A stretch of DNA of 63,586 nt, filler included, from Psammoneis japonica (GCA_008632985.1; 5 parts of 5 records of this genome joined end to end with filler, not necessarily neighbours in it); one strand, 5' to 3'; positions 451-55,609 are shown, counted from the first letter of the whole stretch. Numbers and translations are program-made. Notes: generated by a model from the sequence alone, not told the origin.

Positions 451-469
451 CTAATTGCAACATGCTGGC

Positions 470-22956: not shown

Positions 22957-24007
22957 GGTTCACAATTTAGTAGCATGCAGAAAACGGCTTGCGTGTGCGC
23001 GGCATAACACCACGAGATCGGGACGAACGAGTCGATCGATTCAAATTTCATCAGAACAACCTCCCGCAGAGTGTCCAAAGATTGTGATGGGCAAAAAGCA
23101 CCAAACGCCAAACACCACCGGAATTTGGTGAATCAACTTGCACTGCAGCTGCATTTTGAATTTGTTTGCGGTTGCACACTGCACCCCAGCGCAAGAGCTC
23201 AATCTTTCTCAGCCTCTCACTCGACCGCCGCCATGTGCACTGGAGATGCTCTGGCATCTTCAAGTCTTTCATGCACTGGCTGCAAACCACACAACACTCA
23301 AACAATGTGCTCAAGGACGTTGCAACAATTTGCACTTAACTTGAACTCTCATCAAAGATCAAAGGCACCTTGCAATCAAAAGAGCTGCTGTGTGAAGATC
23401 TGCCACTCCAGCCAACAAAACTGACACACGCTGGGGCTTGTGCCACCCCCCCCCCCCCCCCCNNNNNNNNNNNNNNNNNNNNNNNNNNNNNNNNNNNNNN
23501 NNNNNNNNNNNNNNNNNNNNNNNNNNNNNNNNNNNNNNNNNNNNNNNNNNNNNNNNNNNNNNNNNNNNNNNNNNNNNNNNNNNNNNNNNNNNNNNNNNNN
23601 NNNNNNNNNNNNNNNNNNNNNNNNNNNNNNNNNNNNNNNNNNNNNNNNNNNNNNNNNNNNNNNNNNNNNNNNNNNNNNNNNNNNNNNNNNNNNNNNNNNN
23701 NNNNNNNNNNNNNNNGGGGGGGGGGTGTCTGCCATTGGTTTGAGGAGATTGACACAGCGCACTGATTTGGTCTCCAGGGGTTCTCTGGTTGCCACACGTG
23801 GCACACAAATGATTGTGTGCCTCAACTGGATTCCAGCAGGGCAAGCTCTTTCTGCATTTTGTCATTTTCATCTGCTCACCTGCTCACCAAAGGCTGCTGT
23901 TGTGCTTGTTTGAGCTGTGAGGTGGTTGATCATCTTGTGTTGTTGGCTGTTTCCATCTTGCACTGTTGGCTGTTTCCAGATGTTTTGTTTGGCTGGGCAG
24001 CTTGCAA

Positions 24008-24906
24008 TCATTGTGGTGCATCATTTTTTGGCCATTGCACTTTTGGCTGAGTGCATGCTTTCTGAGCAAAACTGTGCAACAGAGCCTGCCTTGGGGACAA
24101 TTGTGACACACTTGCACTCATCAGACAGGCTTGACATGTGGGCCAAACAAGGTGTCCCTGTGAGTGCAGCATCTGGCTGTTGCCGTGCAAGTTGTTTTCA
24201 TGAAATTTGCAGTGCCTCCCATCATCATCAGGTTTGGCAGCACCTTTCTGATCAGCAAATCCTTTCTCGTTGGACATGTGCTGAATGACATCTTCCAAAG
24301 AATCAGTGCTGACATCCTTTCCAGCACGTGCATGATTCTGTTTCCACGTCATCGGCATGCCTGTAAACATGATGTTCTTGATCTGCTGCTCATTGAGCAA
24401 AGGTTCAGCTCCAGGTGGCTTGTCAGCACAACGTGACATTTGAGTCATCCTGTCAGCATGCTCGCGAGGAGAATCACCAAAAGGTTTAGAAGAATTTTTC
24501 AAAAATTCAAACATCGCATCACGTGCTTGATGATCGCAGCATCGCTGACAAAAGCGTGCGATTTCCACATCAAACCTGGCCATTGTCCGATCTGCTTCCG
24601 TGACACCCGAAACCAAGTTGCTCCATGCGTCTTGAGCATTGTCTTCTGACACTTCTTCAAAATGGGTGAATTTTTCAGGTCCTTCATCACAATCCAAACA
24701 CTCGGCACAGTTTTCAAAACGCTCTGCAGCGCAGAGCAAACACTTGATGCCGCACTTGCCGGTGAGCTGAGGGCACATTTTCTGTTTCTCAGTGCCATCA
24801 TCGCAGCTCTGTGCGAGTTTCACTTTGTCCAAATCTCCGTGTTTGAAGGTTGGTTTGTGTGCAAAGCACGGTGCTCTCAGCGAAGCTCTCACCAAGTGCG
24901 ACATTG
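24008..24906 (-). pseudogene. gag: Gypsy gag, hypermutated
   Basis: GPEKFTHFEEV, ARDAMFEFL..KP, PREHADRM, LNEQQIKNIMF..MP.TW and IQHMSNEKGFAD resemble diatom Gypsy Gag (recalled similarity); no Tyr remains. Confidence 0.7.
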
Positions 24907-25014
24907 CGCTTGAGTTAAAGGATGCACAGCAAAGAAAAGAGAAGGAAAGAACAAGACACAGTGTGATCACAGTGAACGGTCTTGACAAGTTGTCCACGAA
25001 TGCTTTCTAAAAAT

Positions 25015-31900: not shown

Positions 31901-32000
31901 NNNNNNNNNNNNNNNNNNNNNNNNNNNNNNNNNNNNNNNNNNNNTTAATTAATTAANNNNNNNNNNNNNNNNNNNNNNNNNNNNNNNNNNNNNNNNNNNN
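31901..32000. other. Artificial contig linker
   Basis: N44-TTAATTAATTAA-N44. Confidence 0.97.
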
Positions 32001-34578
32001 CCAATTCGACAACTCCACCTGCACCCATCCATCTTATCAAAGAAGATCAAACAGATTTCTGCAAGGCATCAAACTAAGACAAGACACACGCTCAGTTAAG
32101 ATGCGCCAGTGTGATTTCCCAGATGCAGCAAAATTCGGCAGTTCTCTCATGGACAGCAATGCACCATCCTCGCCTGAAAAAGAGTTGTGTTGCAAGCTGG
32201 CTCTTGCTTTGTTCACATCATGTCGGACTGCCTCAGACACACGACCATTCGATCAAACCTGCTTGCAGTCATTCCGTCAAGCGGTGGAGAGAGAAATCGT
32301 CACTGAAGAAAATCTGAAATTCTTGCAAAATCTGCAAGATGCAAAATCTAATTGTCTGCGATTAAAAAGCACATCAGATTTTCTTAAACGCACCACCCGT
32401 GAGCATGCATCGGACGACAATGAATTTAGCACAAGGTGCGAAAGCGACACCGAAGACGACATTGGAACGGCTTTGCAAGGACAAATGCTTGATGCTCTTC
32501 TAGATGAATTGGTGAACCATGAACACGAAGACGGGACAGAAGCGAATGATGAAGCAGCCGCACCCACAAATTTAAGTGGCAAACAAACCAGACAGAAGGG
32601 AAGTCACCTTGCAGGATGTCAGCACTTGGCATGCATGTGCATGACTTCTTCAGATCAAAACACTGTTGTCAATTCGGTCCCTGTCGTAGAAACAATGGAG
32701 CCACCAGAAATTGAGGTCAATGAAGAAGACAATGAAAACAGCATGCAAGCAGATGAAGAACCTGCACCTCAAATTAGGAAACGAGATGTAGTTCGAGCAT
32801 TGCTGACCAAGACTGGACACATTCAACGATCTTTCCAAGACACAACTAATTCGGAAGAAGCCGTTGATGTCCTTGAAGCTAACGGCTCAGCTAAAAGCTT
32901 GGTTGATTGGTCAAAAAAAGCCAAGCTAGACCCACATCAAAGTCGTGCTTTTGAAGTCATGGCAGGAACTTTCATTTTGACGCACTGCAAAGACGCTCTG
33001 GGAGAACAAGCAAGTGGCAATGTAAGAGGAGGAATTGGACACGAATTTAACAAAGAATGCAGGAGATTGGCTGGGTCAGTTGAAGTGCGAGAATGAAGAG
33101 GCACACAGTCAATTTGTTTCTTGCATGGAGCAGGAGGAAGTGGCAAATCCACTGTTGTCGATCTTGTTGTTTTGCACGCAAGAGAATGTTGCTCTTTAAT
33201 TGAATGACCATTCACTGCACAAACAATTGCCGTCACTGCCATGACCGGAGTTGCAGCGACAATTCTGAAAGGAGACACCATTCACAGAGTTGCCCATCCA
33301 AACAGGAAAAAAGAAATGACAGAAACACAAATGGAAAGCTGGAGTGACACTCGTCTGCTGATTGTTGACGAAATGTCATTTGCTTGCAGAAGAGATTTAG
33401 AAAAATTACATGCTAATCTATCTGTCGTGAAATCCAATTTAGACAGGCCTCATGGGGGTGCAAACACAGTGTTTGCAGGGGACCTGAGACAACTCGAGCC
33501 AGTTGGACACGGAATGCACCCTCCACACAAGGAGACCTGTGCCGAATTCCAGGAATGGGTGAACTGCTGCATCCAGTTGCATGGGATGCACAGATTCAGT
33601 GAGGATCCAGAATGGGGCAGTTTGCTAAAACGATTTAGAGATGGTGAAGCGACTCTCGAAGACATCGACAAAATCAATGAAAGAGCAGTGAGAAAGGGTC
33701 AACAACTGCCAGAGAACATTGAATGTGCATCACACAGAAACAAAGAAAGAGACTCCATCAACACAGCCTTGTTTGAGGAAAGGACCAAGAGACTGCACCA
33801 AAGAGATGGAGAAGTCTTGGACTCTCTAGCCATTTTCAGTGACGATTTACAAGTGCGTGACGGAGCAAGACAGCACATGCCTTTCCCGGTGTGCAAAACA
33901 TTCTGGAAAAACTGTGGAGAGAGCGATGTGGAAATGCAATCTGGCAGGCTTGATCCAGCATTACGAACGTGCAAGGGATGTAGAGTTATGATCCCGTACA
34001 ATGAAAATGTGGCAAATGGCATTGCGAATGGAACACAAGCAACTGCAGCAAAAGTCGTGCTGAAACCAGGAGAACATTCATCGCAAGTGGTCTTGGACTG
34101 TGGAACATCCATTCGAGGTGTCACAGCATCCCAGGTGGATCATGTAGAACTCAAGCACAGCAACAAAAGCATCGATCCACCCACCTTTTCGCTCAAGCCT
34201 AAGTCTTCCAGTTTCAAAGCCTGTTCAAAGGACCCAACCCAACAGATGACAGCTGAGGAAAAAGAGAAACATGTGCTCGGACTGAAAGTAACCCAATTGC
34301 CATTCACAACAAACAATGCGACTACAGGACACAAGCTTCAAGGAAGCGGTGTCGACAATGTGTTTGCACATAGCTGGAGCTGTGCACAAAACTGGGCACA
34401 TGTCATGCTCTCCAGGGTTAAGACCAGAAATGGTCTGCATCTTCGGCAACCGCTGAAGAGAGATTTAAGTCTATACAGACTGCTGGACGGGTGTAACGCC
34501 CTGCTCCGGTTGATGGAAGGAAAAAGTGTCACATACTTCACCAACGAACAGTATGATGACATTTTGCAGTCCAATTAA
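32001..34578 (+). mobile_element. Helitron-type PIF1 helicase (C-terminal part of RepHel), inactivated; 5' part beyond the contig edge
   Basis: Walker A GAGGSGKS, TAMTGVAATILKGDTIH, Walker B LLIVDEMSF, FAGDLRQLEPV, HRFSEDPEW, IANGT, TGHKLQG, HVMLSRVKT; in-frame TGA at 33094 and 33205. Confidence 0.88.
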
Positions 34579-35419: not shown

Positions 35420-38400
35420 TTAGCAGCAGAGAGTGGCACTGTCTTTCAGAAGGTCGTGACAAAGCACCGTGGGCCTCAGTTGTTTGTTCAACCCCACAGG
35501 GCCGTTGTCAGCAAAGGGTGGAAACTGCGCACATGTTGATGCACTGGCATTGCTGGCCACCACCTCCAGAGTTGTTGGATCACTTGGCAGCACGTGCTGC
35601 TCTGGCACAAGCCATTTTTCTTTGTTTGGCACAAGCTGCACCTGGGTTCTCCAAAAAAGCATTGGGAGTCTTTGGTCGCTGGGTGCTGACTGGACATTTG
35701 TGTGATCTCCATCAACCTTCAAAGCTGCCTTGTTGGCAATGTGGGCTTTCACATTTGCTTCATCAGCACTGCTGTGGGAGCATTTTTCATGTGTGAGCTG
35801 AAAAGTTGAGATTGGTGTTTCCAATGACTGACATTGCAGCTGACCTTGCTGGCCCATCAAAAAAACAATGGACCATTGGAGAGTGCTTGGTGCACATGTG
35901 TGCACATGGTCTTGTCAGCTCAAAGCTGAAGTGGAGAAAGAATGCTGGGTGCCATGCTCTCAGACAATTGGCACCAGCCTGAGCTTGCAAGTCAAAGATC
36001 AAAGAGCATGAGCTGCCATGGTGGGTTAGCTGGGGTCAGGTGTGGCCCTGATTTAAAAAGCTCACATGGCAGACAAGTCTTTAAAAATGAGGTGGTGTTT
36101 GCCATTGGTGCCTCCACAGGAAAAGCAACCCCCAGCAGAGGCAAATTCTTTGTGTGGCTCAGGCGGCTTCTTCTCTTTTGAGTGCTCTTTCAAGGCAGCA
36201 GGGGCTGCACAGCACATGTGTGGCCAGCCATGACAAGAAAAAACTCTGCCAACCAACTGCGCAACACATTTCATCTAGCTGCCAATGCATGTTTTCCAAC
36301 AACCACATCAGAGATTGTGGTGCTCCTCAGAGAAAGCTTTCCTGTCATCTGCAACCCACCACTTCCAAAGCAAGCTTCTCATGCCAGGTTGTGTGCTTCC
36401 AAAGCCAATGATGGCTGACTTTTTGTCTAAATTTGGGGACATGACACTCACACTGCCAAAATCACTGCCAAAAGACAAAAGAACTTTGCAAGCATTTTCA
36501 AAGTTTGCATCAATGTTGCTTTCAGCTGCCAAGAATTCGGCTGTGATTTGCTTTCACATCTGGCCATGCTCTGTGTGCAGTGCAGCACAAACCAAGCAAG
36601 CAAAGCAGCACTGACACAGTGGCCTGCTCACAATGTTTTCAATGGATGCTGTTGGTGTTGGATTGTGCTGTCTTGTGCTTCCACAAATGTGATCATTGGT
36701 CTTCTGCTGCAGACAAGATGGCGGCACTTGTGCTCAACAAGTTTGCCAACCTCAACAAGGGAGGTCTAGATCCAGGCAAATGCCTTCAGTGCAGATTTGT
36801 GAAGGACATTTGCTGGTGTGCACTTAACCTCTGAACCTGACAGAGTGGTTGTGTTGGCACTAATTTCTTCAACAACATTGGCTCAATCTCTGTCATGCCA
36901 TCATTTCAAGCTCTCAGATGTGGTGTTCAGCCTCATGCATGAGAACAATTTTTTGCTGCATGGCACACTTTTGGCAAACAGAGGCGCTCAGCCATGCATG
37001 TGCTTGTGGCTCCTGGGGTCTTCCAAGCTGCTGCTGCTCAGTTGTGTGGGACCGGATGCCAACCTTCTGGGTGCACTGCAACCCCAGATGGTCAGGCTTT
37101 CACTTTGTGAGCTGTGAAGTGCACATGCTTTTTGGCAACTTGTTGGCTGATTTTCCCTGTGCTGTCTCCGCCTGTTTTGATGCTGCTTTTCTTGAGAGAG
37201 CTGGGCTCATCATTGAGAGTTGTGATGAGCTGGACAATGCTCAACAAATGCTTCACTCAGAAGAGCCCAAACACAAGCTTGCAAGCCCAGAGTGATTGAG
37301 ACAGGGCCATTGCAATTTGCTTTGTTGGTGGTCAAAAAGTGAAAATCACACCATGAGCCAGTTTGGTCGCCTCTGTTGCTCAACTTGCCTCCATGCAGCA
37401 CATGTAGTTTGTGCTCCATTCCACCTTTTTGAACCAGCTGATTTCTGTTTGCCAAACCCAGCCAGCACAAGAAAAACTCTCCAGCTGATTCATGATGTTC
37501 TTGATGCTGTTGGCCCAAGATTTGGCAAAGTCTTTTGGACAAAGTGCACACTCACTCTGCCAAAAATTCAGCTCAATGCACTTGACAGGGTGCACTGGGA
37601 GTTCTTTGCTGCATTCTTGGAGTGGCCTCTGCAGCTCTGCAGCTGTTTGCTTGATGTGCCCAACTGCAGCATCTGTGACACACATGCTTTGAGACTCCTG
37701 GCTCTGTCAAGCCCAGCTTCAACAAACAGTGGTGTTCAGCAGAGAATGTGTTCATTTGAGTGACATGTCAAATCAGGCCAGCAGCTTCCAAGCATGCCTC
37801 AACCACCCTCTCTTGTTGGCCTTGTCTTCTCAGCACAACACAACAACCAGCTGTGGTGCCAGAATCTTTTCTCTTGATGCAGCAGGCCATGAACTTGAGT
37901 GGGCTTTTGCAGATCGTCATGGAAGACAGCAATGCCAAAAACAGTGTCACAAATGTTGTGATTTGTTCCACTGAATGGCCAACTCTTGCTGCAAGAGCAA
38001 ACAATTGTCTTTGCACTGTGCTCTGCTCTGCACAAAACTTTTGGTCATTGTGTTTCCCCAGCAAGTGTTCCCAGAAGAAGAGAAGAGTGGCAGAACAGCT
38101 CAGCTTTTTGATCCTGCCCTGCCTCTTGACTGAAAAAAGAAGGTGCATGGGTGCATCATGTCACGCTTGTCATTTGCCAGCTCTGGCACAATGCACACTT
38201 CCCAGTGCACCCATTTCAAACAACAGATCTTTTGAAAAATGCAGTTTGTCCAGTGCTTGAGAGGCTCTCTGGACAACCCCTTGTGCATTTTTTGGCAAAG
38301 CTTTGACATTGCAGCTTGCTGTGAGATGTGTGTGTGCTCCCTTGCTGTGCTGACAGAATCTTGTTGGCACTTGCAGCACCCTTGTGTTTGTTCTTCAAAT

Positions 38401-40907
38401 GCATAACTGGCCAGTTGAGCAAGATCACTCTGAAGCTCTTCCTCTGCAACAGGATGGTGTCTCACTGTGAACTGCTTTCAAACACAGAAGTCAGATCCAT
38501 CAAGTGTGTCACAAGCTCTTTCTTGGATGCATTGCAGCAGTGAGCAAGCAACTTGAGATGGGTGTGCCAAAAGTGAGTGGTGCCCATGCCCACCACTGGC
38601 AGAACACACTCAGCAAGCACAGCTGAGCAGCAGCAACCTCTGGCAGAATGCACTCTACAAGCCCAGCTGAGCAGCAGCAGCAGCAGCTGTTCTCACAAGC
38701 ACAGAAAATGAGAAGCAACAAAAGCATGCTTGCTTGTGTGAAGCTTTTTGTCACCCAAGTGCTCTCAGGCCAAGCAGACTCTGCATCCCCCACCTTTGAA
38801 ACAAGAATGCAGGCACCAGCTTGCTTGGACCCTGGTGAGCAATTTTGACAATCTGGGTGATTTTGAATTTTTTGCTTCCACAACCCAACAGAGTTTTGTC
38901 AGAGAGTTGGGAGCCATTCCTCCACTCCTCTGGGTGGCAGGTGGATGACTCACTCTCACCAGGTTGCACTTGACACTCCAGTGTCTGCCCCAATCTCTGC
39001 TGTCTTTGAACACAGACTTCAATCTCTCTGCCTTTGTGCAGGGAAGGCATTGTTTGATGACCTGATTCTGTGTGCACCCAGAGAGATCCAGGGCACCACA
39101 AGAGTTTTGTCATGGCACTGGTGGCAGTGTGATGGATTTGTGACATCTTCCCAAAGAAACCTTTGGCTGAACCCTTGTGATGTGTGGAGCTGTTCAGGAA
39201 CTTTGACAGACCCAGACATGTTGAAGAAAAGATGTCATTGCTCCTGATGTGGAGGATGCGGCAACTCATTGAGTGCAAAGATGTGCCATCGCTGATCCCA
39301 CCCATTTTGTTGTTCTCACTCTTTGGAGTGAATCATTTGGTTTGCATGATTGTTGAGTGGTGTCAAGAGGCACCTGATGTTGGCAGTTGTTGATTTTCCA
39401 TTAATTCCCAGGCAAACCACAGCCACAGCAGACTGCAAGACAAGTGCAACCAGTTGCTCAGGAGAGGACCTCAAGGAAGGGATTCCCTTTACAAGGCATT
39501 GCCTTGCTGATTCAACATTCACACCAGAGAGTCATGGGTGCCAAGTTTGGTGCTCATCTGCTGGAAGACTGCTGACAACACCAAGATGTCAGAATGCCTG
39601 CACAATGAGTGGCAGAGGAGTGTGCAGATCAAGCTGTTGAGGCCAAGGATGTGGTCCAGCAGAGGAGATGGAAGTCACAGGTTGCAACCACAAGGGTGAC
39701 ATGTCTTGTGCCAAGTGGTTCAAGAAGACCAGCAAGAAACTGGAGATTGAGAGGCAGAGCCATGCATGGATGTGAGAGGCAGAAAAGACAATGGCCCATC
39801 AGTGGACAGCAACAACACATGAGTGTTGACACCAAAAAATCTGACAGATCAACCTGTTCCAGCCAAAGCAGAAGAAGCACTGCATGACCACCAAGAGAAC
39901 AGAGGGGAGCATGAATGACCAAGCCAACACAGACATTGATTCCAAGGAGATTGTCCTTGACAATGGCTCTGGTGCCCTTGGCATGGCAGCAAGCTGGAAA
40001 CTGGTGCACAATGTGTGACCAGCGAGGATCAAGATTGACCCATCAACCAATGCCCACACCCCAGATGAAGCCTGGGCAATGCCAGGATGGAGAGACATGA
40101 AGCTTGGGTCAGATGATGTGATGGCCAGTGACCTCAATTTAAAGGATGTGAAGAGCAAGCACTGCATGACTTGAGATGACGGAATTGCAGATGAGTTCCA
40201 ACTGTTGGGCAAGAAAACTGGGGACAAAAGCTGCAGTGTTCAAAGTTGACAACATTGGGCTGCACATGTTTGCACCAAGTTGAAAATTCTTCAACTGTGC
40301 CAAAGAGCTGCAAGAGCAAGAAGAGCATGTGAGCATGCTGTTGAAGGACAAGAGGAGAGCCACCACCAAAAAGGAGCACAAGGACACATCCAGAGTGATC
40401 ATTCCCACTGCAGAACAAAACACCAAGGGCTGCTCTAAGAGAGAGCAAGCCAAGAAAGCTTTCAGGCTGCAGTGTGAGGGATTTTAAACTGTCATTTTTA
40501 TCAAACCAGGTGAAGAATCTGACCATTGCACCTGAAGACATTGACAGAATGGCGGCCATGTGGGGACCACAGACAGCACACTAAAAGAAAGACCAAGCCT
40601 GCACACCCTGCCCATGAGAGAAATGCTCTGCATTGATGTCATGGAAGCATGTGGAGTCAAGACATTGTGCACAACAGACAAGACAAGCAAGCACCAATCA
40701 AACATGAAGCCAAACACCAAGAACTGCACCAATGCACACAAGGCATTGACGTGGTGATCCTGCAACAGCGCATGACACCAACACATTTAAGATCAACTCA
40801 TCAAGAACAACCTTGAGTTCAAGGATGTGGTGTTGGCGGCCATGCTGATGGCATGGACCCAGAACCAATGGTCCATGAATGCCAAACCACCATGTTCCTG
40901 AAGTGGA
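35420..40907. mobile_element. Highly degenerate TpA/CpG-depleted repeat relic, unclassified
   Basis: About 19 TA and about 20-25 CG in ~5.5 kb by manual count; short tandem CTCTCTGCTSTAGAGCTG at the left edge (~35370-35415). Confidence 0.6.
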
Positions 40908-41007
40908 NNNNNNNNNNNNNNNNNNNNNNNNNNNNNNNNNNNNNNNNNNNNTTAATTAATTAANNNNNNNNNNNNNNNNNNNNNNNNNNNNNNNNNNNNN
41001 NNNNNNN
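40908..41007. other. Artificial contig linker
   Basis: N44-TTAATTAATTAA-N44. Confidence 0.97.
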
Positions 41008-44000
41008 GAGCTTCTTCCTGATCGGAAGGCTTTCCCAACCACCGTTCTCGTTGTTCTTGGGTTGTAAGGTTGCTTGCAAAGAATGTGCTCGCAGCTCTTT
41101 GCAGCATCCTTGTCCATTGTGCATGTCGAACACAGCCAACAATTTCTTCCATTGTTTGACAACCTGGAAGAAGGTTGCAAGAGTGAAGGGAATCACTGTG
41201 TCCCCCCTTCTTCGTTTTTGGAGAGCAAGGCCCGAAGATCAACCAGATTTTGGAAAAATTGAGTCGTCCCAAAACGACTGTCATGCCACTCTCCATCTGG
41301 CATCCAGCAGCAGTCCAACATGATTTGGTCGAACCCATGATTGTCGAAATCAACAAGTTTCTCAAACTGCTGCTTGACTCTCTTGACGAAATCTCTTGCT
41401 TTCACATTGCAATTTAAGTGCAGATCAGGATGTCCGTCTTGGAGAGAAACTGTTGGAACGACGTTTGTGACTGTTTTGTTAGATTCCTCAAATGCCATTG
41501 CNNNNNNNNNNNNNNNNNNNNNNNNNNNNNNNNNNNNNNNNNNNNNNNNNNNNNNNNNNNNNNNNNNNNNNNNNNNNNNNNNNNNNNNNNNNNNNNNNNN
41601 NNNNNNNNNNNNNNNNNNNNNNNNNNNNNNNNNNNNNNNNNNNNNNNNNNNNNNNNNNNNNNNNNNNNNNNNNNNNNNNNNNNNNNNNNNNNNNNNNNNN
41701 NNNNNNNNNNNNNNNNNNNNNNNNNNNNNNNNNNNNNNNNNNNNNNNNNNNNNNNNNNNNNNNNNNNNNNNNNNNNNNNNNNNNNNNNNNNNNNNNNNNN
41801 NNNNNNNNNNNNNNNNNNNNNNNNNNNNNNNNNNNNNNNNNNNNNNNNNNNNNNNNNNNNNNNNNNNNNNNNNNNNNNNNNNNNNNNNNNNNNNNNNNNN
41901 NNNNNNNNNNNNNNNNNNNNNNNNNNNNNNNNNNNNNNNNNNNNNNNNNNNNNNNNNNNNNNNNNNNNNNNNNNNNNNNNNNNNNNNNNNNNNNNNNNNN
42001 NNNNNNNNNNNNNNNNNNNNNNNNNNNNNNNNNNNNNNNNNNNNNNNNNNNNNNNNNNNNNNNNNNNNNNNNNNNNNNNNNNNNNNNNNNNNNNNNNNNN
42101 NNNNNNNNNNNNNNNNNNNNNNNNNNNNNNNNNNNNNNNNNNNNNNNNNNNNNNNNNNNNNNNNNNNNNNNNNNNNNNNNNNNNNNNGGACCTTCATTTC
42201 CTCCATTTGCTTTGCCACTCCCAACTTGGCCACCGGATGGACAAGATTATGAAGGTCAGGGTGAGGATGGATCCCTGTGCCACACAGCATCAATGTCTGC
42301 ATGGAGTTCATGCATCTGAACTCTCCACAATCAGCACCTGTGTGATCCCATGTTTGGACCACGGTTTCAAACATGTCCTCGATCGCCTTGTGGTCAAACG
42401 CCAGCTTGCCAACATTGTCGTTGATCCAGTCAATGACAACAACCAGTCCGCCAACAAGCAAATCCATCAAACTGTTAAGTTTCGTCCCGCACTCTGCCAC
42501 ATGAACCTCCTTGAAATCGAGTCCCGGGCTCTGCATGCGTCGGTTGTTGCGATCCCCCGCAATGCTGCCGAACAGCCTGTGGCTTCTCTGAAGCAATGAA
42601 GGACACAATCGCCAGCCACGAAAGGACGCTTCACAGCATCTGTGTTGCACAACAAGCAGTGAAAACGGGAGAATCCGGTTTGACACCCAGCCACAATGGC
42701 GCAATGAAAGCAATCACACACACCAACCTCGTCGAGGTTGTCAATGATTGCCGAACAACCGCACGAGAAATTAAAGTCCTTCACGATGGCAAACGGAAGA
42801 CATTTCCTTGGCATGACAACAACGGGATGCTCAACTGTGTCGGACGGAAGATTTGGCTTGCCAATTTCCTCTTCCACCCACACAGAGTGAGGGTCAAGGA
42901 AAAAATCTTTGATGTTTCTGTGGGTTGGCTTGCCCGACGGAGGACGACAAGGGCCACGGCATCTCATCATTTCTGCAGCACATGACAGATCAAGTTTTGC
43001 GAAATGACCATGCACACGCGATCGGAACTCGGCACCCATGCCGAACTGACACAGTTTCCAGCATTGCCTTTGGATGCAGTGACAACCTTCAACGACCAAG
43101 AGCGACCAACAGCGTCTCGCAGTGATGAGCAAAGAGCACCAGTCTTGGTGCACCCATCCATGTCACAATCCTCTTTGTCAATGTGCAGCTCGGTTTTCGA
43201 ATTGACGGATTTTTTGCCGGACGACGAGATGCACTTCACTTGAATTTCCACGCCTTCCCTTCTAATGTGCTTGGCTCCAACCATCTTACGGAGCTCAGCC
43301 GCGAAAAGACTGTCACGGCACGGGTCATGGAAGGAATGCATTTCTTTCAAAGCAACAAGATTGATTTTGTCCTCGCAGAGTTGCACGGCGTCCAAGATTG
43401 AGGCTGTCATCACCTGCACATCCTTTGGAAGCTTCTCCCACTTGTCCCTGCCAAAGACAGCACCAGGCTTGTGAGCAGGTCCCACTTCATCTAACTCGCC
43501 ATCTGCGACTTCGTAATTCTGGCCACAACAACCAAAACAGATCCGACAGCGCAACTTGCACTCTGGTCCATCCCTTTTTTTGTTCGGCTCGCCATGTTCC
43601 AACACTGCACGGAGTGTCGACGACACACTGAATCGCAATCCAAAAAAGCATTTCTGACACATCTTGTCCGTGTGTCGCAAACAAGTGACCACGTCAGAAA
43701 AATGAGAGGTTGACTGGGTCGGGCAAGTGATCGCAACCATCGATTCTTGCGTTGGATCATTGGGAGCTGCGCCGTTTTCAAATCCATGCACAAACTTGCG
43801 GAGGTGACTCGCCAAGCAGAAATTGGAGATGCTGTGGAATGACTGGTGCTTGACACAGTTCCCCTTGAAGGAACCGGAAATGGGGGTTTCCTCAAAAGAC
43901 GACAAGGTGAGAATGTTGTGACTTCACCTCACCCGGAATCGCAAACGGAGATGGTTCAGGAAACACTTTCACAAGCTCTTCTTTTGTGAAATTGTCTGGC

Positions 44001-46240
44001 AGAGGAGGAGGTGACTGACAAGTTGCACCAAGGGTCAGCCACTTTGTTCGGGAACATTCAAATTGTTCCTCGAGAGTCGGCACATCTTGAAGAATCAGCG
44101 ATTTGTTCTGAGAAACATCAGAAGGTTCGCCATCTTTGGCGTTTTTGAGACTGGGGCTTGAGGAGCAAAGGGAGGCGGCTGAAGAGGTGGCAAGAAGAAC
44201 AGAAGAATTGGAGACAAGAAGAGGAGGACAAACAATCAATCAAACAATGTGGTGGATTCACACCATTTGGATTTTTTTGTTTCCGAGATTTTTTCATGAC
44301 GGATGGGGTTGCATTGCCGATTTCTTTCTTCTTGTGCTGAGTGGCAAAGTCACGAAGCCTGGCTTTCCACATGGCCTCAAAACGATCCCTTGTGGCCTTG
44401 CTTTTGCCGGAATCATCAGCGGCAGAAACCACACGATCAATTTTCACACATCTTAAAAGAGTCTCATCGACATGTGTTGCGTGCATTTGTTCTCGCTCGA
44501 CATCGAGCATCGCTGGTCGCGCGGGCTTTTCCCAAGAATTTTTGTGTTGGCGGAACAACGACTTTACGAATTCAGGGAAGGACACAGGGCATTCGTCTTT
44601 GGTCGTCTCACAGTGACCAAGAGCCAGGAAATTCTCCAAAAAGTTGATGCAAGTCAATGTCTTGTCACATTCGCCGAACAGGGAGTGCAGCCAACAACCG
44701 CAATCACCATTCCTTTCAGGTGCGCACGGCAAAATCTTGTCACGAAGAATCAAAAAACCAATGTGAAGGTGTTGCGCGCAACGCAAAACCTTCCCTTCAA
44801 AACTTCTCAGCTCAGTGTGCTTGACAAGTGGCTCTCCCTTTGGGTCGCACAATCTGGGATCATGGAGAAGCTTGCACAACATGGTGATCTTTGCCATCAT
44901 GTTGGTTGCAATGTCTGTTGATTTTGCCTTGTTGCCGATGACTTTCATGTCCTCCACTTTGGGAGCACGGCGATGCTCCATCGCATGAGGATGTTTGGTG
45001 CCTTGACTGGAACAACTCCATCTTTTTGCAGAAAGAAAGTGCAGCAAGCTCTTGTGCCCAAGTTCCTTTGCAACAACACGGTTCACAGCCATTGGCTCTG
45101 CAAAAAAATGAGGTCGGCCCTTCGACTTTTGCCACACATGGGCAAGCGCGATCCAATTCGGAGAGGGATCACAAGTGGAATCGCAGTGAAACTGAACCTT
45201 GGATTTCGCCGTCTCGATTGTCGCTTTGACACGGCTCCGCTCGTTGCCATCGATCACTCCAAAACCGTTGGCAAAGAGAGATTCAAACACGGCCTCCTCG
45301 AGGTGGGAATCATTGTTGTCTTGCGACAGAGAGGTGACCGACAGGTCACGCGGCGCCATGGTTGCTGTTCCAACACCAAAAAATCTGGTTTCTGTGGAAA
45401 TGCACCAGAGTGGTGTGTGGGAGAAGTTGCACATGCGCCTGGCACGATTTGGAGTTTCAAACACAAAAACCCACCAGACGCATGTGCAACTTCTCCCAGG
45501 GAAATCCTGCATGAGATTGCACCGGGAAAGGGCAACACAGAGTGCAGAGCTGATGGAAACAAACATTGTGCGGAACCGCATCAGGAGAAAGGGTGCATGC
45601 ACTGGAAAACAACATGGATTTCTGCATGTGCGTTAAGGTGCGTAAAAAACACGTGGGGGTCTTCAAGCGACGCACGCGAACAATCACATAGAAACATTCA
45701 GAAACGGAGACAGCACAGAGAGAAGTCAGAAACATGGATCCAAAACAAAGTGACACACAACAGAAAAAAAAACAACAACAACAAGAGATGAAGGCAACGG
45801 CGATGGGATCGATGAAAAAGAAGGATTCGGATGGAAAGACGCCGGAGACGGTGAAAACAGGCGGCGCCAAGATGAGGAAGGAAGAGAAAAATGGGGCAGG
45901 CAAAATGAAGAAAGAGAAAAAGAAGCCGACAACACGACGTCAAGAGGGGAGCAGCGATGCGATTCAGCGTTTTGAGGGACCTCTTCCTCTCAATGATGTT
46001 CGCCCAAAATCGCAAGAAATGCAGTGTGGCTTTTTTGGAATGGCGACGAGGAAACATCCAACGCGGCAGCGGCACATTTGAAATTCTTGCAAGAGAGCGG
46101 ACAAGACACATGGAATGAAGAGGATGATGCGGACGACTGGGCAAATTGGAGCGCAGTTGTTGATCAAACAATCAGCGCACACTTTGCATGATGAAAATTT
46201 CATTGCATGCAATTGCAGTGTTTGGCTTGTCGTCAAAGAT
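41008..46240 (-). pseudogene. Long degenerate minus-strand coding region of unknown family within repeat DNA
   Basis: Successive protein-like ORFs 44118-45602, 42967-43905 and 42467-43153, almost Tyr-free; TA lost but CG retained. Confidence 0.45.
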
Positions 46241-46249
46241 CACCAGTTG

Positions 46250-49200
46250 TTGTGAAAAAGGCAGAGCACAAAAATTAAAAAACATCGGTGTTCAAACATG
46301 AAGAACAGCAGGAGATTGACAATTGGCCAAATGACAAAAACCGTCATGTGCAGACAAGTGGGTTTTAAAACACAGCAACACATTTTTGTCATGTGTGCAG
46401 ACATTGCGATGTCGTGCACTCTGATGCACTGGTTGAGCCAGCATGCAACTTTTGCACTTGCTTGCTGCAGGCAGCCTGGCTGCTGTCTTCCCCAGAGGAT
46501 CAGCTGGAGAGCAGCTTGCCAGCACAGATGGCAACTGGTTGACACCCCAGCAATGGCGACAACAAGCAAGTCCTCAAGCTTTGGCCTTGGAGAAGAAACT
46601 CTTCCCGAGCAGCACATTTGTGGCTTGTCAGCAGGAGGACAACAGCTTTGAGCAGAAGAGCAAGCAGCAAACTTGTGTCACCACACAGCAAACAAGATTT
46701 CATCATGGAAATGCACAGAATGAGTGCACCACTCTGTGGCCAGAAGAGGGAGGTCTGGAATGTGATGATCACAGGACAAGAAGAAAAATGTGGCTCATGT
46801 TCCAAGCTCATGTTGCAGTGCATGTTCTCATTCCCTGTCACACTTCATGGAACAACCACACTCTGATGCCTCAGTCCATGCTCTGAAAAAGGCCTTTTCA
46901 ACTGCAAAGGAAAAACTGGAATGTGTGCACTGAGTTTGCCAAACAAATGGAATGCCCCATGCTCTTGGAGCACATGGCATCTGTCTGCCTGTTCTCTGGC
47001 ATCTGTCTGTCAGCTCAAGAGAGCAGAGTTGCTCTGCCCCCTGGCACTGAGCCATTTTTTCTTCTGCTGAACACATCTTTTTTTTCTGGCAGCCCTGCCA
47101 CTTGACAATGGCAGGCACATGATGCACACCAAAGTGGCAGCCACACTCACTCAACAAGCACGACTCAGTTGCAAGTTTGACAATGGCGCTGCTTGCGCTG
47201 CTGGCATCAAAAAGTGCAGTTTGGTTTGATGCAGTGCCTCACTCTGCTGCAGCATCATGGCCATGCTTGGAGCTTGTGAAGTGAAAAGGATGTGTCACAA
47301 AATGACAATGAAAAGAAAATGTGAGAGACTCAGAAGTTTTGAGAGAACAACAAATCCCTCAGCAGCCAGTGTCCTCCAACTTGCCACAAAGCACAGGTGG
47401 ATGAGCACCCCCTCCACCTCCTCTTGACACTGACTTTCCTCATTGTTGCTGTTTGTTTGATGTGCTTGAAATTGTGCACAATTTTTGCAGGAGCAACAAG
47501 CGCCAAGTGCAGCAGATGACAAGAGAAAAAAGATGCCAATGCAAAGACTCTGCTGCTCCACCATCAATTTGTGCACATGCCACCAACTCAACAAAAATTC
47601 ATGGAATTTTGCAGTGCTTTTCTTCATGCTTTCAAGCAAAAAGTCTTTGTTTCCTCTCAATGTCAACACATCTGAATGGCGCAAAAGAGGCTCAGCACAT
47701 GCGTGCTGATGACCTGGCTCTGTCTCCAATCTTGTGTGATGGGTTCAGCCAAAGCGCACCCACTGTCTTTGTTGTTGAGCCAAACATCAAATGCACGCAT
47801 GCAGACATGAGATCACAGATTGACTTTCCATGGCAAAAACAAAAACACAAAAGTGGTGCACAAAGAAGAAGACAAGAACCAAGAGAAGCAGAGACAAGGC
47901 ACGTGAGACTTGGTCGTGTGCCTCTTTGCTGTTGCCATCACTTCCGGCCTGTTGCAGCCATGGGTGATGAGCAATCCATCATGGGAGAGGCTAATTTTCT
48001 GGACAGTTTGGCACACTCAACTCCTTCAAATTTGAACATTTCAAAAATTGAAAGGTGAGTGCAGACAAAAAACCAAAAGTTTTGTGTGTGATTTGGGAGA
48101 AAACCAATTGTGAACAAGTTCATTGTGCTGAATTGCAAAAACAGGCCAGTGATGGGAATCAAGCCTGTGCATGTCACCTGGAGCTGGGGCAGCATCAAAG
48201 TGCTGGAAGGGCCAGTTGGTTGCAACAACCAGCAGCTTCATTAAAAATGCAGACAATTTTCTTTCCCTTGGCATGGCTCTGCTGTGCAGCAGCAGCTTCC
48301 ACAATTCCATTGCTGATGCACATGTGGTGGAATGCCAGAAGCATCCAAGTGCAGTCTGGCAAACTCATCCATTGTTCATCATGGAGCACAAACAGAATGG
48401 TGGTTGCATGGAGTGTGCTTTTCATGTTCCTTGAGAATCTCCTCACAATCATGGAGTGTGGATGTGCACTCCATGAAAAGTGGCCTCCACGAAATGTGCA
48501 AAAATGGCCTTGTTTCTTGCAGAATGGCTCAGAGGAATGTGAGAAAAAAGGCTTGTTCTGCACACTTCCATGAAGTCTCATTTGCTGCACACACCTTTGC
48601 ACTTGTTTGTTGTGGCATGGCCAGCATGACCACTTGGGTGCTGAGGCCACCAAGGCCTGCATTGAAGTCTGCCAAGAAAATTTCCAGAGTGGGCAAGCCA
48701 TGAGGCCAGCACTTTCTTGCATCTCTGCTTTTGCAAGATGGCAGCCTGGAGCTCCTGAACAAAGGATGAGCAGCAGCAGCAAATTTGAGGTGCACAAGAA
48801 AGCCTTCATTCTGGACAGACAGTGCACATTCATCCAGCCCCCAGATGACTGGGCAGCACTGGCACTCTGGCTTCTGACAGCTTTCAGCATGATGAGGCAG
48901 CTCTGTTGTCTGGAGAGCAGCTTGAACAAATTTGGCAAATGTGCAGCACCAAACCCACAGAGATGACACTCAGACAGAGACGCACACTCAGCAATTGCAA
49001 AATGCAGAGTGAAGCACCAATTTCTTGAGGCTCAAACATTTCTGGCGCACGCTGCTGCACCCAAGCTTTCTCCCATGGCAAGCTCCACATGTGTGGCTGT
49101 TGTGCATGGCTGTTGTGCAAATGCACAGCAACACACTGCCTCAGATGTGTGTGGTGCCATCCTTTTGGCTTTTGTGGCAGACGCCCTTCATGCCGCAACT

Positions 49201-49900
49201 GCGCATGCTTTCAAATGCCAGGCACGTGCCTTCTTGGCCAAGCAGAGAGCTGCGTGCTTGAAACTTTCCTTCTCTTTGGCATTGAGCCATCTCTTTTTGA
49301 TGTTTGGTTGAGTCCCACCCACTGAAATTTTTGCCCAAGGAGTGTGCTGCATGTGGTGCGGGTGCCGAGTGTCGTGGCGTGCCTTGCTTTGGAGCAACTG
49401 CGCTGGAGCTCTTGCTTGGCTGCCATTGTTGTTGACAGCATGGGCACAGAGAGGCCAGTGGCTGCCATCCCTCCCTTGAAAGATGAGGATGCTTCACTCA
49501 AAGATCTGAGAAGCAAAGGCAGGCACCTTTGACATGGCTGGTTGCCACATCCCAACCAGCAGTTAAAACTTGCTTTTCTTTGACCATGTGCTGCGGCATG
49601 CAGGGCGGTTGCATCACCACAGCGCGCCATGCGCAGCGACACGCATGGGCACAGGTTTTCACGCGCCGCAGTTGGTGTGAACACCACAACACTTTTTTTT
49701 GTGAGCGACAATGACAGGCTTGCGTCGCTTGCGCCGTCGCCGTCAATTCTTCATGCAAGGTTAGACACTCATGAGATCATCTCCATTCATTCACATGATG
49801 CACATGCCTTGGCTCTGTCTCGACAAGTGCCGCTGTTTTGATTTTTTGTTTTGCATGTGCTCCTGTCAGTCACGAGTCAACAACCGAGTCTGATTCACGG
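46250..49900. mobile_element. Degenerate TpA-depleted (mostly also CpG-depleted) repeat relic
   Basis: Composition only; no recognisable domain. Confidence 0.5.
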
Positions 49901-50167: not shown

Positions 50168-50328
50168 AATCCACGCACCGGTGTCAACTCCCAATGGAGT
50201 TGCTGCCACTCGTTCGTCTCGTTACAGACGACATCCCATCCAACGGCGATCTTCTGTGTCGCAATCCAACGGCGATCATCTACATCGCAATCCCCACCTG
50301 CTAATCGATCCTCTACATCGAATCATCC

Positions 50329-53300
50329 ATGACCATGTCCATGGATCCTGATGCTGTCAAGATGTTTGCTGAGGCCTTCGCCAAGATGCAAACCTCGACC
50401 AACCCTCCTACGATCCCCACGCCGCTTCGCGGCGGCATCCACCACTCTCATGGAGTGCATCTGGGTGGTTCGGCTCTGAACAACAAGTGCGAGCAGACCG
50501 ACACCCGCACCTGCCGTTTTGCCTCGCAACGTCGCCATCCGAAAGCTGTCGACTCTATCGAGCGATCTCTCAGAGATCAACTCGCTTCGGCAACCACATC
50601 CAAGTTCAACGGCCAGATTGAGTCATCCAACGGTTCCAGTGCTGAACTGGACAAAGACCACTTCGTCAAGACCATTCAGGACTTAATCGAGTCGCACGGA
50701 CAAGAAACTTTCTACCATCTCAAGAAAGTTGACGGCAAGGTCGTGTGCCTTTTTGATCATCTTCACGCCTTCACTGTCAAAGACCTTGAGAAGGAATGTG
50801 AGACCCGTGTGGCGGCCACAGGTGACGAAGGCTACGATCAGTGTGAAATCGATGACATCGGCTCATCACAACTCATCGTCAAGTCGCGTGTCGCCGAAAC
50901 CTTCCGTGAAAAGATTGAAACCAAGTTTGATCACTTGAAGAACTGCAAGGATCTTCCGGGGTCTGTCTCATTTATGATGGCTCTGGATGCCTGCAACGCC
51001 AGTGCTCTGGTTGACGTCAAGGCCGCCAAGGAAAAGTTGAACGACTTAACTCTGGATGCCTGCCCTGGCGAGGACTGCACCGAGCTTGCAACCGAAGCTC
51101 TGCGCCTGCTCAAGATCATGCAGACGGACCATGTGTCACCAGTTGAAACTGGGTCTGCTGTTTTATCTGAGGTGTCAAAGACATCCTCCGAGTTTTTCAA
51201 TTGTCAAGTTTTTGCCAAGCTCGACTCTGTCAAGCGCTTGGAGCGCAAATGTCGCTTGCGTGACCCGGCAGAAGTCCCCAAGGATGCCGACCATGCGGAT
51301 CTTGGACCTGTTGGCCTCATTGGCTGGATCACCAAGACCCACGGCGAACTCATCAGCGATGAAGATTGGCCTGCCTTAGCAGCCAAGCTCCCGGAATCCA
51401 ACCTCGCCAAGGACAACTCGGAAAAGCATTGCTGCGGCTGTGGCAAGGTTGGGTGCACCAAACGCACGTGTCCCACCTGCAAGGAGCAATGCAAGAAGGA
51501 CAAAAAGGGCATGGCGGACAAGTCCAAGGATGACCCTCCGGATGTCCGGAAGACCAACCCTTCCAAGAAACCACCCAAGCCGGCCTGGCGTTTCGTTCAC
51601 AAAGGTGCCACTGTCACCGACGAGAAAGGCACGACCTGGCACTGGTGCGACAAGTGTGTGAACAAGGAAACGGGCAAGAAGGGCATGTGTCAAGGCCACT
51701 CCTCCGCTCAACACACCGGGAAACCGTCTGTCAAAACCGAAACCACCGCTGCGGCAAATTTGTCTGCTGTGTCGGACCCCTCTTTGGGCATTCCTTTTGG
51801 TCCTCCCGAGCAGACGACGTCTCCGCCTACAGACGAACCCTCTGACCCTAACGAGCTGGTTTATTGCGGCATGTGGTGTGCACCTGTGGACGACTCTTTG
51901 AGTTCGACTCCAGTGACCACGACCGTCACGTTCACTCCTGCTCCATCGGCCGAGAGGGAGACTGCCGTGGCCAAACCCGCTCCCATCTTGGTTGAAACGG
52001 TTGACCCCGAAGACGCTGACGATTGCTCCAAGTGCTCTGACGCTCACTCCTCTTTTGACTCCCTGCCGTCAGCTGTCGAGCTATTTCCGGCCTGTGCCAT
52101 GCATGAGATTCAAAATCCGGACGTGTTTTATGACACGATTGCAACTCACGTGGAAGGTCTGTCCGACGACGTGTCAGACGATCTCGTTTCCGGGGCAAGC
52201 ATCCTGCCTTTCGAAGACAGCCACGCGCACTTACCTCCAAGCACCCAGTGTCGCGGTTTCGAATTTTACGATCCCGAACCCCAAGATGTTGATTGTGGCG
52301 TCAAGGAGGCAACGCCGAGCTCTCGTCTTGAGCTTTTCTGGAACTTCTTGAAGCTCCGAGTTTTCTGGCTGTTTGCCATGTTCTGGGAAACGGCACTGCA
52401 CATTTGCTGTGCGCCGATTCCTGTCTTACCTCGTCGTGTGCGCCGCAAGGCATTCATCCCAACCATTCACGGTTTCCCCTCTACCTGGATGGTGCTGACT
52501 GGAGCCATCATGGTCTGGGTGTCTGTTTTCAACAGTCAGCTTCCCACGCATCCATTCTCCAATGTCCCCTCTCGCTTCTCCAAAGCTGGCTCTCAGGTCC
52601 ACTCGATCATTGAAGAACTGGACGACAAGACAGTGTTGGATCCGGGCAGTTTGGTGGAATGCAACAAGATCAAGGCGCGACAAGTGCTCACCGAATTTGT
52701 GGAGCACGATCCGGACCATTGTCTGAGCAAGAAATTCACGCAGCTCTGGGAGAATGACGCATGCTCTTCCCCAGGCCGCTGCATCCCTCCAGCTCTAGAA
52801 GACCCCGAGTCCCACTTCGACACCTGTGATTCAGAGGAAGCCCTCGGCCCGCTCCCGACCGAGCCGAGCCACTGCTTTGATGCGGTTGAGGAGCTCTCTC
52901 CGGACTATTTTCGTTTCGACGAGCTGTCCACCAAGTTTGGTTTCGTGGACACCACTCCATGGCAAGACCCTGTGAAGCTTCTCCAGGCAGCTACTGACGG
53001 AACCGAAGCCCATCCTGCTCATACCTCTGTGCAGGTGTTGACAGGCCAACGTTCTTTAGCACAACTCGCCGCCGACCCGCAAGCTTTGCTGAGCCCAGCA
53101 CATGAGCGCCACACCATCACATGCGACACTGGCGCATCCTTGGCCATTGCTTACGATGAAAACGACTTTGTCGGACCTCTGACGATCCCTGATGGCCCAT
53201 TGAAGCTTGGGGGTCTAGCAAATGGCTTAACCATCGCCAGCATCGGACCCGTCTCCTGGGTTTTCCACAACGAGGACGGCTCTGAGCTCATCGTCAAGAC

Positions 53301-54367: not shown

Positions 54368-54467
54368 NNNNNNNNNNNNNNNNNNNNNNNNNNNNNNNNN
54401 NNNNNNNNNNNTTAATTAATTAANNNNNNNNNNNNNNNNNNNNNNNNNNNNNNNNNNNNNNNNNNNN
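54368..54467. other. Artificial contig linker
   Basis: N44-TTAATTAATTAA-N44. Confidence 0.97.
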
Positions 54468-54569
54468 CTACAAGGCCAATGTGGCCAATATCCCGGCAAT
54501 TCGAATCATCCTTTGCTTCCTTCTTGATGTCAACCTTGTTGACATTGCCCACCATGTTGATATTCTCAG

Positions 54570-55348: not shown

Positions 55349-55609
55349 CCAGAGTATTGCGGTGCCAGGAGAAGTATCCTATAGAAATTCTAGAGAATGA
55401 AATGCAAGCATGAGTTGTCTCCTCTTTCTCATCGCCCAGAACCTGACCAACACCACTTTTTTCTCAACACATACGGATATACAATGCGTCTTACGGTTTC
55501 ACTGTAAATTCTTCATCTCTTGGTTACTTGTCGGCGCACGGGTGCACCAAAAATTGTTACCGTCATTGCTGCTGCTTCGTACATACTTGTACGACGATGG
55601 TTTGATGCT

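Follow-up and report, generated by a model that had tools for sequence, protein, structure and literature searches.

Residual TpA steps in transposon-derived blocks of a 63.6-kb window of eukaryotic DNA show a graded preference for their flanking bases

We report a strong sequence-context bias among the TpA dinucleotides (TA in the following) that are left in transposon-derived blocks of one 63.6-kb window, by which we mean the whole stretch of 63,586 bases that was analysed. The window is eukaryotic and consists of host genes interspersed with these blocks, in which TA has been almost completely removed. The analysis centred on the region 35420–40907 (5,488 bases, no strand assigned), an old repeat relic in which both TA and CpG are nearly erased. 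Here, residual TA steps mostly have a pyrimidine before the T and a purine after the A, and the reverse arrangement is missing altogether. This context bias is real and far beyond chance. On balance, a mutator that is directed at repeats and whose effect on TA depends on the flanking bases appears to us the probable explanation.

In the region 35420–40907 there are 20 TA and 24 CG, and the observed/expected ratio (o/e) of TG and CA is ~1.9. Fifteen of the TA occur as YTAR (Y, pyrimidine; R, purine), three as YTAY, two as RTAR and none as RTAY. The individual contexts are TTAA (7), CTAA (4), TTAG and CTAG (2 each), and GTAG, ATAA, CTAC, TTAC and TTAT (1 each). The initial annotation of this DNA had given ~19 TA with a split of 14/3/2/0. 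That pattern holds, while the exact count has to be corrected by one additional TA at position 35421, on the edge of the region. Together, the TA-depleted blocks of the window make up 28.3 kb and contain 94 residual TA, namely 53 YTAR, 26 YTAY, 15 RTAR and 0 RTAY. Survivors elsewhere had also been described as mostly YTAR or located at the edges of A-tracts, and this was borne out: YTAR sites and TTTA/TAAA edges together account for 73 of the 94, compared to 267 of 1001 in normal DNA. A further T was present two bases before the T of residual TA in 48% versus 29% of the cases, and the hexanucleotide TTTAAA accounts for 8 of the 94 sites.

Three null distributions were used for comparison. The normal DNA of the same window provides 999 TA, with 178 YTAR (17.8%) and 314 RTAY (31.4%). 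A second set, of 16,788 TA with 17.8% YTAR and 31.5% RTAY, was taken from 80 related metagenome copia elements, read on their sense strand. The third and harshest null is the first-order dinucleotide make-up of the blocks themselves, from which 32% YTAR and 19% RTAY are expected. Compared with normal DNA, the contexts of the 94 block TA deviated with a chi-square p of 2e-20 and the probability of finding no RTAY among them was 4e-16; the copia null yielded the same P values. Against the blocks' own dinucleotides the probability of no RTAY was 4e-9 and that of at least 53 YTAR was 1.3e-6. For the region 35420–40907 alone, the probabilities of at least 15 YTAR among 20 TA and of no RTAY were 3.6e-8 and 5e-4 when measured against normal DNA, and 2.3e-4 and 0.023 when measured against its own dinucleotides. 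If no hand-drawn blocks are used and all 52 windows of 500 bases with a TA o/e <0.15 are taken instead, 77 TA are obtained, with 47 YTAR, 15 YTAY, 15 RTAR and 0 RTAY.

The effect of the flanks is graded. For an estimate of survival, the contexts were assumed to have had the same frequencies ancestrally as in normal DNA, and these were scaled to the length of the erased blocks (~1,095 TA expected). The estimate was highest for TTAA (0.47), followed by CTAA/TTAG (0.22), CTAG (0.13), GTAA/TTAC (0.11), ATAA/TTAT (0.07), CTAC/GTAG (0.06) and ATAG/CTAT (0.04), and it was 0 for ATAT, GTAC and ATAC/GTAT. An additive model, in which the two flanks contribute independently to −log survival, was compatible with these data (deviance 10.1, 6 degrees of freedom, p 0.12; p 0.08 with the copia null) and assigned values of 2.47 to A, 2.04 to G, 1.03 to C and 0.36 to T as the base before the T. 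The enzyme-like sequence preference that the initial annotation had suggested is hence supported in the form of a graded, roughly additive flank effect, with a sensitivity of A > G > C > T before the T. YTAR makes up 71% of the residual TA in the more erased blocks versus 44% in the less erased ones, as is expected if the most resistant class remains last.

The flank pattern is visible also in two younger, partly erased elements, the open reading frame (ORF) of a copia-type transposon and an element with a PIF1-like helicase. In the copia ORF, only 2 of 37 TA have a purine before the T (P(≤2 RTAY) = 1.3e-4). The PIF1-like element has 44 TA (~17 per kb), divided into 24 YTAR, 8 YTAY, 8 RTAR and 4 RTAY. 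Ordinary divergence does include RTAY, which is involved in 5 of 16 differences of TA versus TG or CA between sulfatase paralogues of the window and in 28 of 100 such differences in environmental copia pairs (summed by hand). Across the 80 metagenome copia loci no link between TA o/e and the share of RTAY was found (Spearman rho 0.07), and close pairs among them had ordinary spectra. Three of these loci (L043, L044 and L048), metagenome contigs belonging to one family, have a TA o/e of 0.33–0.39 and an RTAY share of 11–20%; their copies displayed an ordinary difference spectrum and no sign of the same eraser.

Sliding windows along the sequence separated three composition states. Normal DNA has a TA o/e of ~0.57 and a CG o/e of ~0.92. 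TA-erased blocks that have kept CpG, 13.4 kb in total, have a TA o/e of 0.06 and a CG o/e of 0.73, while in the doubly erased blocks, 15.0 kb in total, these values are 0.04 and 0.11. No block with CpG lost and TA kept occurs in the window. TG and CA are raised to an o/e of 1.5–1.9 in erased blocks. Expressed per 1000 dinucleotides relative to normal DNA, the CpG-retaining blocks differ by −34.8 TA, −5.6 CG and +42.8 TG+CA, and the doubly erased blocks by −35.9 TA, −46.6 CG and +88 TG+CA. The frequencies of AA/TT, AG/CT, GA/TC and AC/GT shift by at most 2.9 per 1000 in the CpG-retaining blocks, and AA/TT amounts to 76.9 and 86.6 per 1000 in the erased blocks versus 79.8 in normal DNA. The loss of TA is balanced by a gain of TG and CA, it is independent of CpG decay, it spares AA, and survival depends on the flanks. 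The linkers at scaffold gaps, 100 bases consisting of 44 N, TTAATTAATTAA and another 44 N, introduce stops in all six frames. Their cores at 15900–15911, 31945–31956, 40952–40963 and 54412–54423 are assembly artefacts whose TA have to be excluded from any count.

The erased blocks contain the copia ORF, the PIF1-like ORF and multi-copy DNA, whereas the host genes for a Pol I-like 5′-3′ exonuclease/polymerase, COG6, pyruvate kinase, sulfatases and an EF-hand protein sit in DNA with a TA o/e of 0.4–0.8. Contigs of X1, the one public run that contained this DNA, cover the erased blocks at word depths in the thousands and low-copy parts at ~60, which identifies the blocks as repeats. These contigs differ from the window at 311 places, 276 of them by transitions; among the 40 places that were listed, several are double differences, with CA facing TG at one site. 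Self-BLAST of the window detected no pairs of transposon copies, its matches being limited to the paralogous sulfatases, a direct repeat of 772 bases and three short tandem matches. At 46600–49500, where the erased block is low-copy, X1 contigs have CG at positions where the window has TG or CA (47661, 48309 and 48452), which looks like allelic or strain-level CpG decay that is still segregating.

TA loss came after the encoded proteins were functional, as can be read from three transposon ORFs in which 40 of 57 tyrosine positions, defined by homologues, now specify cysteine or histidine. The first is the Ty1/copia-type polyprotein ORF at 50305–54366 on the plus strand (1,354 codons), a young element that has kept its CpG and 37 TA and is truncated by a scaffold gap. 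Its named relatives are exclusively diatom proteins, from Fragilaria crotonensis and Cyclotella cf. meneghiniana, with 40–60% identity. It contains 1.0% Tyr, 3.4% Cys and 4.9% His, compared to 2.5–4.8%, 1.3–2.8% and 2.4–4.5%, respectively, in 38 homologues. The 27 columns with Tyr in at least half of the homologues are occupied by His (10), Cys (7), Tyr (5), Phe (3), Leu (1) and Ser (1). Of 557 conserved columns, 139 are changed in the ORF; these changes include 13 TA>TG, 13 TA>CA and 10 of the CpG type, as well as 7 other A>G or T>C changes, so that 26 TA-type changes face 7 of the same chemical direction outside TA. The 80 related copia loci have a TA o/e of 0.33–0.88; hence, low TA is not a trait of the family.

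The second is the ORF of an unclassified repeat at 44118–45629 on the minus strand, located in the TA-erased, CpG-retaining block 42188–46200. It lacks tyrosine, while its one homologue (59% identity) has 5.2% Tyr; the 19 tyrosines of the homologue are replaced by His (8), Cys (7), Phe (3) and Ile (1). The ORF at 24011–25006 on the minus strand belongs to a third unclassified repeat in a TA-erased block, again without tyrosine. Here the one homologue (64% identity) has 4.5% Tyr, and its 11 tyrosines correspond to Cys (5), His (3), Met, Phe and Gly (1 each). The PIF1-helicase-bearing element at 32001–34575 on the plus strand, possibly Helitron-like, is partly erased, with a TA o/e of ~0.2, a Tyr content of 0.3–0.9%, and raised Cys and His. 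The tandem sulfatase genes at 58140–61863 on the plus strand served as an internal control in normal host DNA. They have a TA o/e of 0.5–0.7 and 3–4% Tyr, two of the copies share 91% identity across 1,450 bases, and the 16 of 126 differences that involve TA versus TG or CA cover all four contexts, an ordinary spectrum.

By the genetic code, a change of TA to TG or CA never makes an in-frame stop; only TAA>TGA involves a stop, and there the codon is a stop already. The change also removes TAA and TAG. Erasure therefore leaves reading frames uninterrupted, and here an intact gene cannot be concluded from an open frame. Erased DNA, e.g. at 35420–40907 and 42188–49000, is rich in long open frames on both strands, with 73 ORFs of at least 150 amino acids in the window. 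This constitutes an annotation trap: dead transposons keep long, tyrosine-free frames rich in Cys and His, which gene finders may call as genes.

A mutator of the kind we favour would be aimed at repeats and would turn the T:A pairs of TpA into C:G, converting TA into TG or CA. It would work on both strands at a rate set by the bases adjoining the TA step. Loss would be fastest at RTAY, that is, with a purine before the T and a pyrimidine after the A in an alternating purine-pyrimidine run, intermediate where just one flank is of the RTAY kind, and slowest at YTAR, above all at TTAA where a T-run meets an A-run. Long exposure would then leave almost only YTAR, the state of 35420–40907. As for the chemistry, our first choice would be a nucleic-acid deaminase that requires a 5′ T and turns adenine into hypoxanthine, which is then read as G; from the sequence pattern, a DNA adenine deaminase appears the most plausible agent. 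Both the targeting to silent or repeated DNA and the identity of the enzyme are matters of inference. As stated in the initial annotation, the window itself encodes no candidate: Pfam searches of 114 of the 157 ORFs of at least 110 amino acids, of 12 long ORFs and of the six frames of the region 35420–40907 returned no deaminase, TET/JBP or Y-family polymerase domain, with 43 ORFs of at least 110 amino acids not scanned singly, most of which lie within the region covered by the six-frame scan or overlap scanned ORFs.

The functional analogue, repeat-induced point mutation (RIP) of Neurospora and other ascomycetes, acts premeiotically, converts CpA to TpA and creates stop codons. The likeness is in the aiming at repeats, the dinucleotide target, transposons riddled with transitions, and sharp-edged blocks of skewed dinucleotides. 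The direction is reversed, however, with TA destroyed and CA and TG made, the lineage is another one, and no premeiotic stage is known for it; moreover, RIP makes stop codons and TA>TG/CA makes none. The C>T changes at CpA with a rise in TpA that are expected from RIP were not found here, given the TA o/e of 0.04–0.06 and the TG/CA o/e of 1.5–1.9. For the deaminases TadA and ADAT2, the natural tRNA target A34 follows U33. Editors derived from TadA prefer YA, including CA, and disfavour RA, according to the cited passages of one preprint (bioRxiv 10.1101/2024.11.19.623682). Our pattern shares with TadA/ADAT2 the A>G outcome and a pyrimidine, preferably T, directly before the target A. It differs in that the need for T is near absolute here and CA is not attacked but accumulates as a product (o/e 1.5–1.9), which may point to a stricter enzyme or to another one. 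A purine two bases before the A together with a pyrimidine after it is not a TadA preference described in those passages. The match to the TadA profile is therefore partial.

The closest parallel comes from the chlorarachniophyte Bigelowiella natans, for which a TpA-restricted hypermutation of integrated giant-virus and virophage DNA was described in a preprint and an ADAT2-type deaminase was proposed (Mettrop et al., bioRxiv 10.64898/2026.01.13.699255). The changes reported there are almost only A>G/T>C at TpA giving TG and CA, they are local to foreign or mobile DNA, and they leave a footprint of TA depletion and CA/TG enrichment, all as in our window. The same A>G/T>C direction is evident here from the balance of TA and CG lost against TG and CA gained, from the replacement of Tyr by Cys or His in the three ORFs (17/27, 15/19 and 8/11) and from the 276 of 311 transitions. 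Differences exist as well. Our window is probably from a diatom; the depletion reported for Bigelowiella is far milder, with a Rho of TpA of 0.45 in the viral region versus 0.04–0.06 here; and the process was seen live in mutation-accumulation lines of Bigelowiella, whereas here it is known from its footprint alone. The words 'context', 'flanking' and 'trinucleotide' are absent from the main text of that preprint, and no flank rule was found in it, although its Figure 2B and its Table S2, with 231 de novo mutations, may bear on flanks.

Several observations weigh against a flank-dependent mutator. On the sense strand of the copia ORF, the 37 residual TA divide into 27 YTAY, 8 YTAR, 2 RTAY and 0 RTAR. 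The rule is thus one-sided there: a pyrimidine precedes the T in 35 of 37 cases, and the base after the A is unconstrained (8 purines, 29 pyrimidines). The resulting YTAY to RTAR ratio of 27:0, versus 2:1 in related elements, is not explained by a symmetric rule. The former tyrosine codons of the three ORFs yielded Cys 12 times and His 9 times if a pyrimidine preceded the codon, and Cys 7 and His 12 times if a purine did. A rough tetranucleotide balance favours TGY products by ~2:1, in mild conflict with these tyrosine counts. The additive model expects 3.9 RTAY and none was observed, a hint of some extra cooperativity between the flanks. Finally, the evidence for the flank rule comes from one 63.6-kb window in which no enzyme was seen. 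As to the strands, no clear rule for a per-strand motif (TAY or RTA) emerged from the Cys and His products (Fisher p ~0.3, hand estimate). Sense-strand asymmetry was rejected as a general rule, as copia alone displays it: the half-sites of the other two oriented blocks, 3:3 and 2:0, are very few, and those of the PIF1-like element are 8:8. Products in the copia ORF were 8 CA and 6 TG at YTAY sites and 5 of each at RTAY sites, and no TG-versus-CA skew was found along the erased blocks. One idea that would reconcile the strand results is an asymmetric R-T-A site that is read in one orientation in the young transcribed element and in which either adenine may be attacked. Selection for tyrosine codons was considered as the cause of the copia survivors and was rejected, since the residual TA are spread evenly over the codon phases (13/14/10). 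The silently removable codons TTA and CTA are present and the non-silently removable ATA is absent; with the even phases, the kinds of codons left rule out selection for these survivors.

Among the other explanations, the one that merits the most space assumes a flank-blind eraser that took all TA, the present TA being younger sites due to C>T at dipyrimidines, a change of YCA to YTA on one strand or the other that is of the kind caused by ultraviolet damage and never produces RTAY. It had been missed in the initial annotation, and we consider it unlikely, if by no means far-fetched. Strict dipyrimidine creation from the CA and TG contexts of the blocks predicts 53/25/22/0% YTAR/YTAY/RTAR/RTAY, close to the 56/28/16/0% observed (chi-square p 0.33), and counts as a further point against flank-dependent erasure, since in old blocks survivors are not distinguishable from TA made anew; in the region 35420–40907, 58/19/23/0% are predicted and 75/15/10/0% observed (p 0.26), so that for this region alone the two readings are not separable. 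The 94 TA amount to ~1.6% of ~6,000 TG/CA sites, inferred to be a plausible later mutation load in old relics, and dipyrimidine C>T with a transcription bias would also yield the one-sided copia pattern. Yet this requires a C>T rate at least 17 times higher with a preceding pyrimidine than with a preceding purine (r_R/r_Y < 0.057), and the most erased blocks are fitted less well (71/21/7% observed versus 54/24/22%, p 0.035). None of 24 conserved YCA-type sites in the copia ORF (His 12, Gln 6, Pro 5, Ser 1) was converted (P = 0.02 at the needed rate of 35/229), there is no in-frame stop at its 26 CAA/CAG codons with a preceding pyrimidine, and its surviving TA-bearing Tyr and Leu codons occupy columns with Tyr/Phe or Leu in the homologues. 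The younger PIF1-like element has a TA density six times that of the old blocks and is nevertheless 55% YTAR, and RTAY is freely present among the ordinary TA-versus-TG/CA differences of sulfatase paralogues and environmental copia pairs. We take flank-dependent erasure to be the main cause, with a possible contribution of newly created TA to the numbers seen in old blocks. The flank rule could also be true with another chemistry, a modification of thymine at TpA (e.g. to 5-hydroxymethyluracil by a hydroxylase of the TET/JBP type) that results in C on copying or repair. An A>G change on one strand and a T>C change on its partner look alike in sequence data, 'purine before T' reads naturally as the R-T-A motif of an enzyme acting on T, and thymine replacement at TpA occurs in dinoflagellate DNA. 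To our knowledge, however, neither a thymine-modifying enzyme nor a modified thymine base is known in diatoms, nothing in the window bears on this chemistry, and the Bigelowiella preprint favours adenine deamination, if only by homology of its ADAT2 candidate (Mettrop et al., bioRxiv 10.64898/2026.01.13.699255). We regard thymine modification as distinctly improbable.

Editing of transposon RNA or cDNA by ADAR/ADAT-like or APOBEC-like enzymes, fixed by reverse transcription and inherited by the copies, would be in line with the strong sense-strand asymmetry of the residual TA in copia (27 YTAY to 0 RTAR, a pyrimidine before T in 35 of 37). RNA editing alone, however, would give only TG, whereas sense-strand products are equal (13 TA>TG and 13 TA>CA); the PIF1-bearing element, probably of the DNA type, is also erased, and symmetrically; and copies differ among themselves at the same sites, some with CA versus TG. 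ADAR hyperediting favours a 3′ G, accepts a 5′ U or A and requires double-stranded RNA as its substrate. With TAG among the better survivors and AA untouched, the pattern misfits this 3′ G preference, and editing is in our view very unlikely to be the cause. The initial annotation had named patch synthesis of the DNA polymerase eta (Pol eta) type, triggered at deaminated methylated CpG and placing G for A at WA motifs (W, A or T). Pol eta hotspots at WA are established, and this polymerase also makes A>T and A>C. The resemblance to somatic hypermutation lies in A>G at an A with a preceding T, and part of the blocks is indeed also CpG-erased, with CpG-erased blocks always TA-erased. The differences are that AA is unaffected, that transversions are not evident and that coupling to cytosine deamination is missing. 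In 13.4 kb a TA o/e of 0.06 coexists with a CG o/e of 0.73; TA thus disappears ahead of CpG. The frequencies of AA/TT and AG/CT are unchanged, hence the AA half of the WA motif was not hit. The TA and CG lost balance the TG and CA gained and leave little room for transversions, and the conserved Tyr columns of copia hold 17 Cys or His versus 5 other residues. The sequence preference in the original interpretation thus stands and its Pol eta branch is disfavoured, to the point that we give it hardly any credence. That no mutator existed at all, with low TA and the YTAR bias reflecting native composition or codon usage of the families, or selection, appears next to negligible. TA is under-represented in most genomes, with an o/e of 0.57 in normal DNA here, but copia relatives have a TA o/e of 0.33–0.88 together with a normal Tyr content, conserved tyrosines have become Cys or His in three ORFs, and even codon phases with TTA/CTA kept and ATA gone run directly counter to the outcome expected from selection.

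As far as we found, a natural mutator that turns A:T into G:C in eukaryotic DNA and is directed at repeats has been reported in a single preprint, from 2026, which deals with an unrelated alga, and we found no literature on such TA erasure in diatoms. Flank rules are the type of evidence by which a footprint is tied to its enzyme; AID/APOBEC and RIP are precedents. For a candidate deaminase or thymine-modifying enzyme the prediction would be that RTAY is attacked far more than YTAR and that TTAA is nearly immune. If true, the fingerprint would allow the biochemical matching of candidates and a test of a shared origin in Bigelowiella and diatoms. Should flank-dependent erasure hold, the YTAR share, which rises from 44% to 71% with erasure, could act as an exposure clock. 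A further-reaching idea, possible rather than probable in our estimate, is that diatoms carry a dedicated DNA mutator, likely an adenine deaminase, as a 'reverse RIP' defence with a graded R-T-A-Y fingerprint; the one-sided copia pattern would then suggest reading of one strand, the R-T-A orientation being set by transcription or replication.

The region 35420–40907 has an abrupt left boundary at ~35421 and is truncated by a scaffold gap on its right end. No Pfam family was found in its six frames translated through stops. Further blocks were delimited by composition, without assignment of a strand. TA is erased and CpG mostly erased too at 401–3500, and TA is erased with CpG kept at 7701–11100, where the minus-strand ORF 10951–11556 has no relative among 1.84 billion representative proteins. 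Both TA and CpG are erased at 18672–20400, at 46201–48900, which is low-copy in run X1 (word depth ~60–135), and at 55601–57800. The residual CpG of doubly erased blocks (counted in 401–2900, 18672–20400, 23716–24100, 35420–40907, 46201–48900 and 55601–57800) is skewed in the direction opposite to residual TA: 34 of 91 are RCGY, mostly GCGC, versus 22% in normal DNA (p 9e-4). This excess could reflect a flank preference of methylation or deamination; alternatively, the same mutator may, to a small extent, generate CpG out of RCAY.

Besides the genes mentioned above, the host DNA of the window includes the end of a valyl-tRNA synthetase gene. The 772-base direct repeat noted in the self-comparison lies at 15956–16726 and 16918–17687; it begins just past a scaffold gap, in normal, non-erased DNA. 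Its two copies are 99.2–99.5% identical and could represent a pair resembling long terminal repeats or an assembly duplication. At 54368–55345, the frame that continues past the scaffold gap cutting the copia ORF encodes a pyruvate kinase fragment with the barrel and C-terminal domains, so that by the join across this gap a host gene adjoins the truncated transposon.

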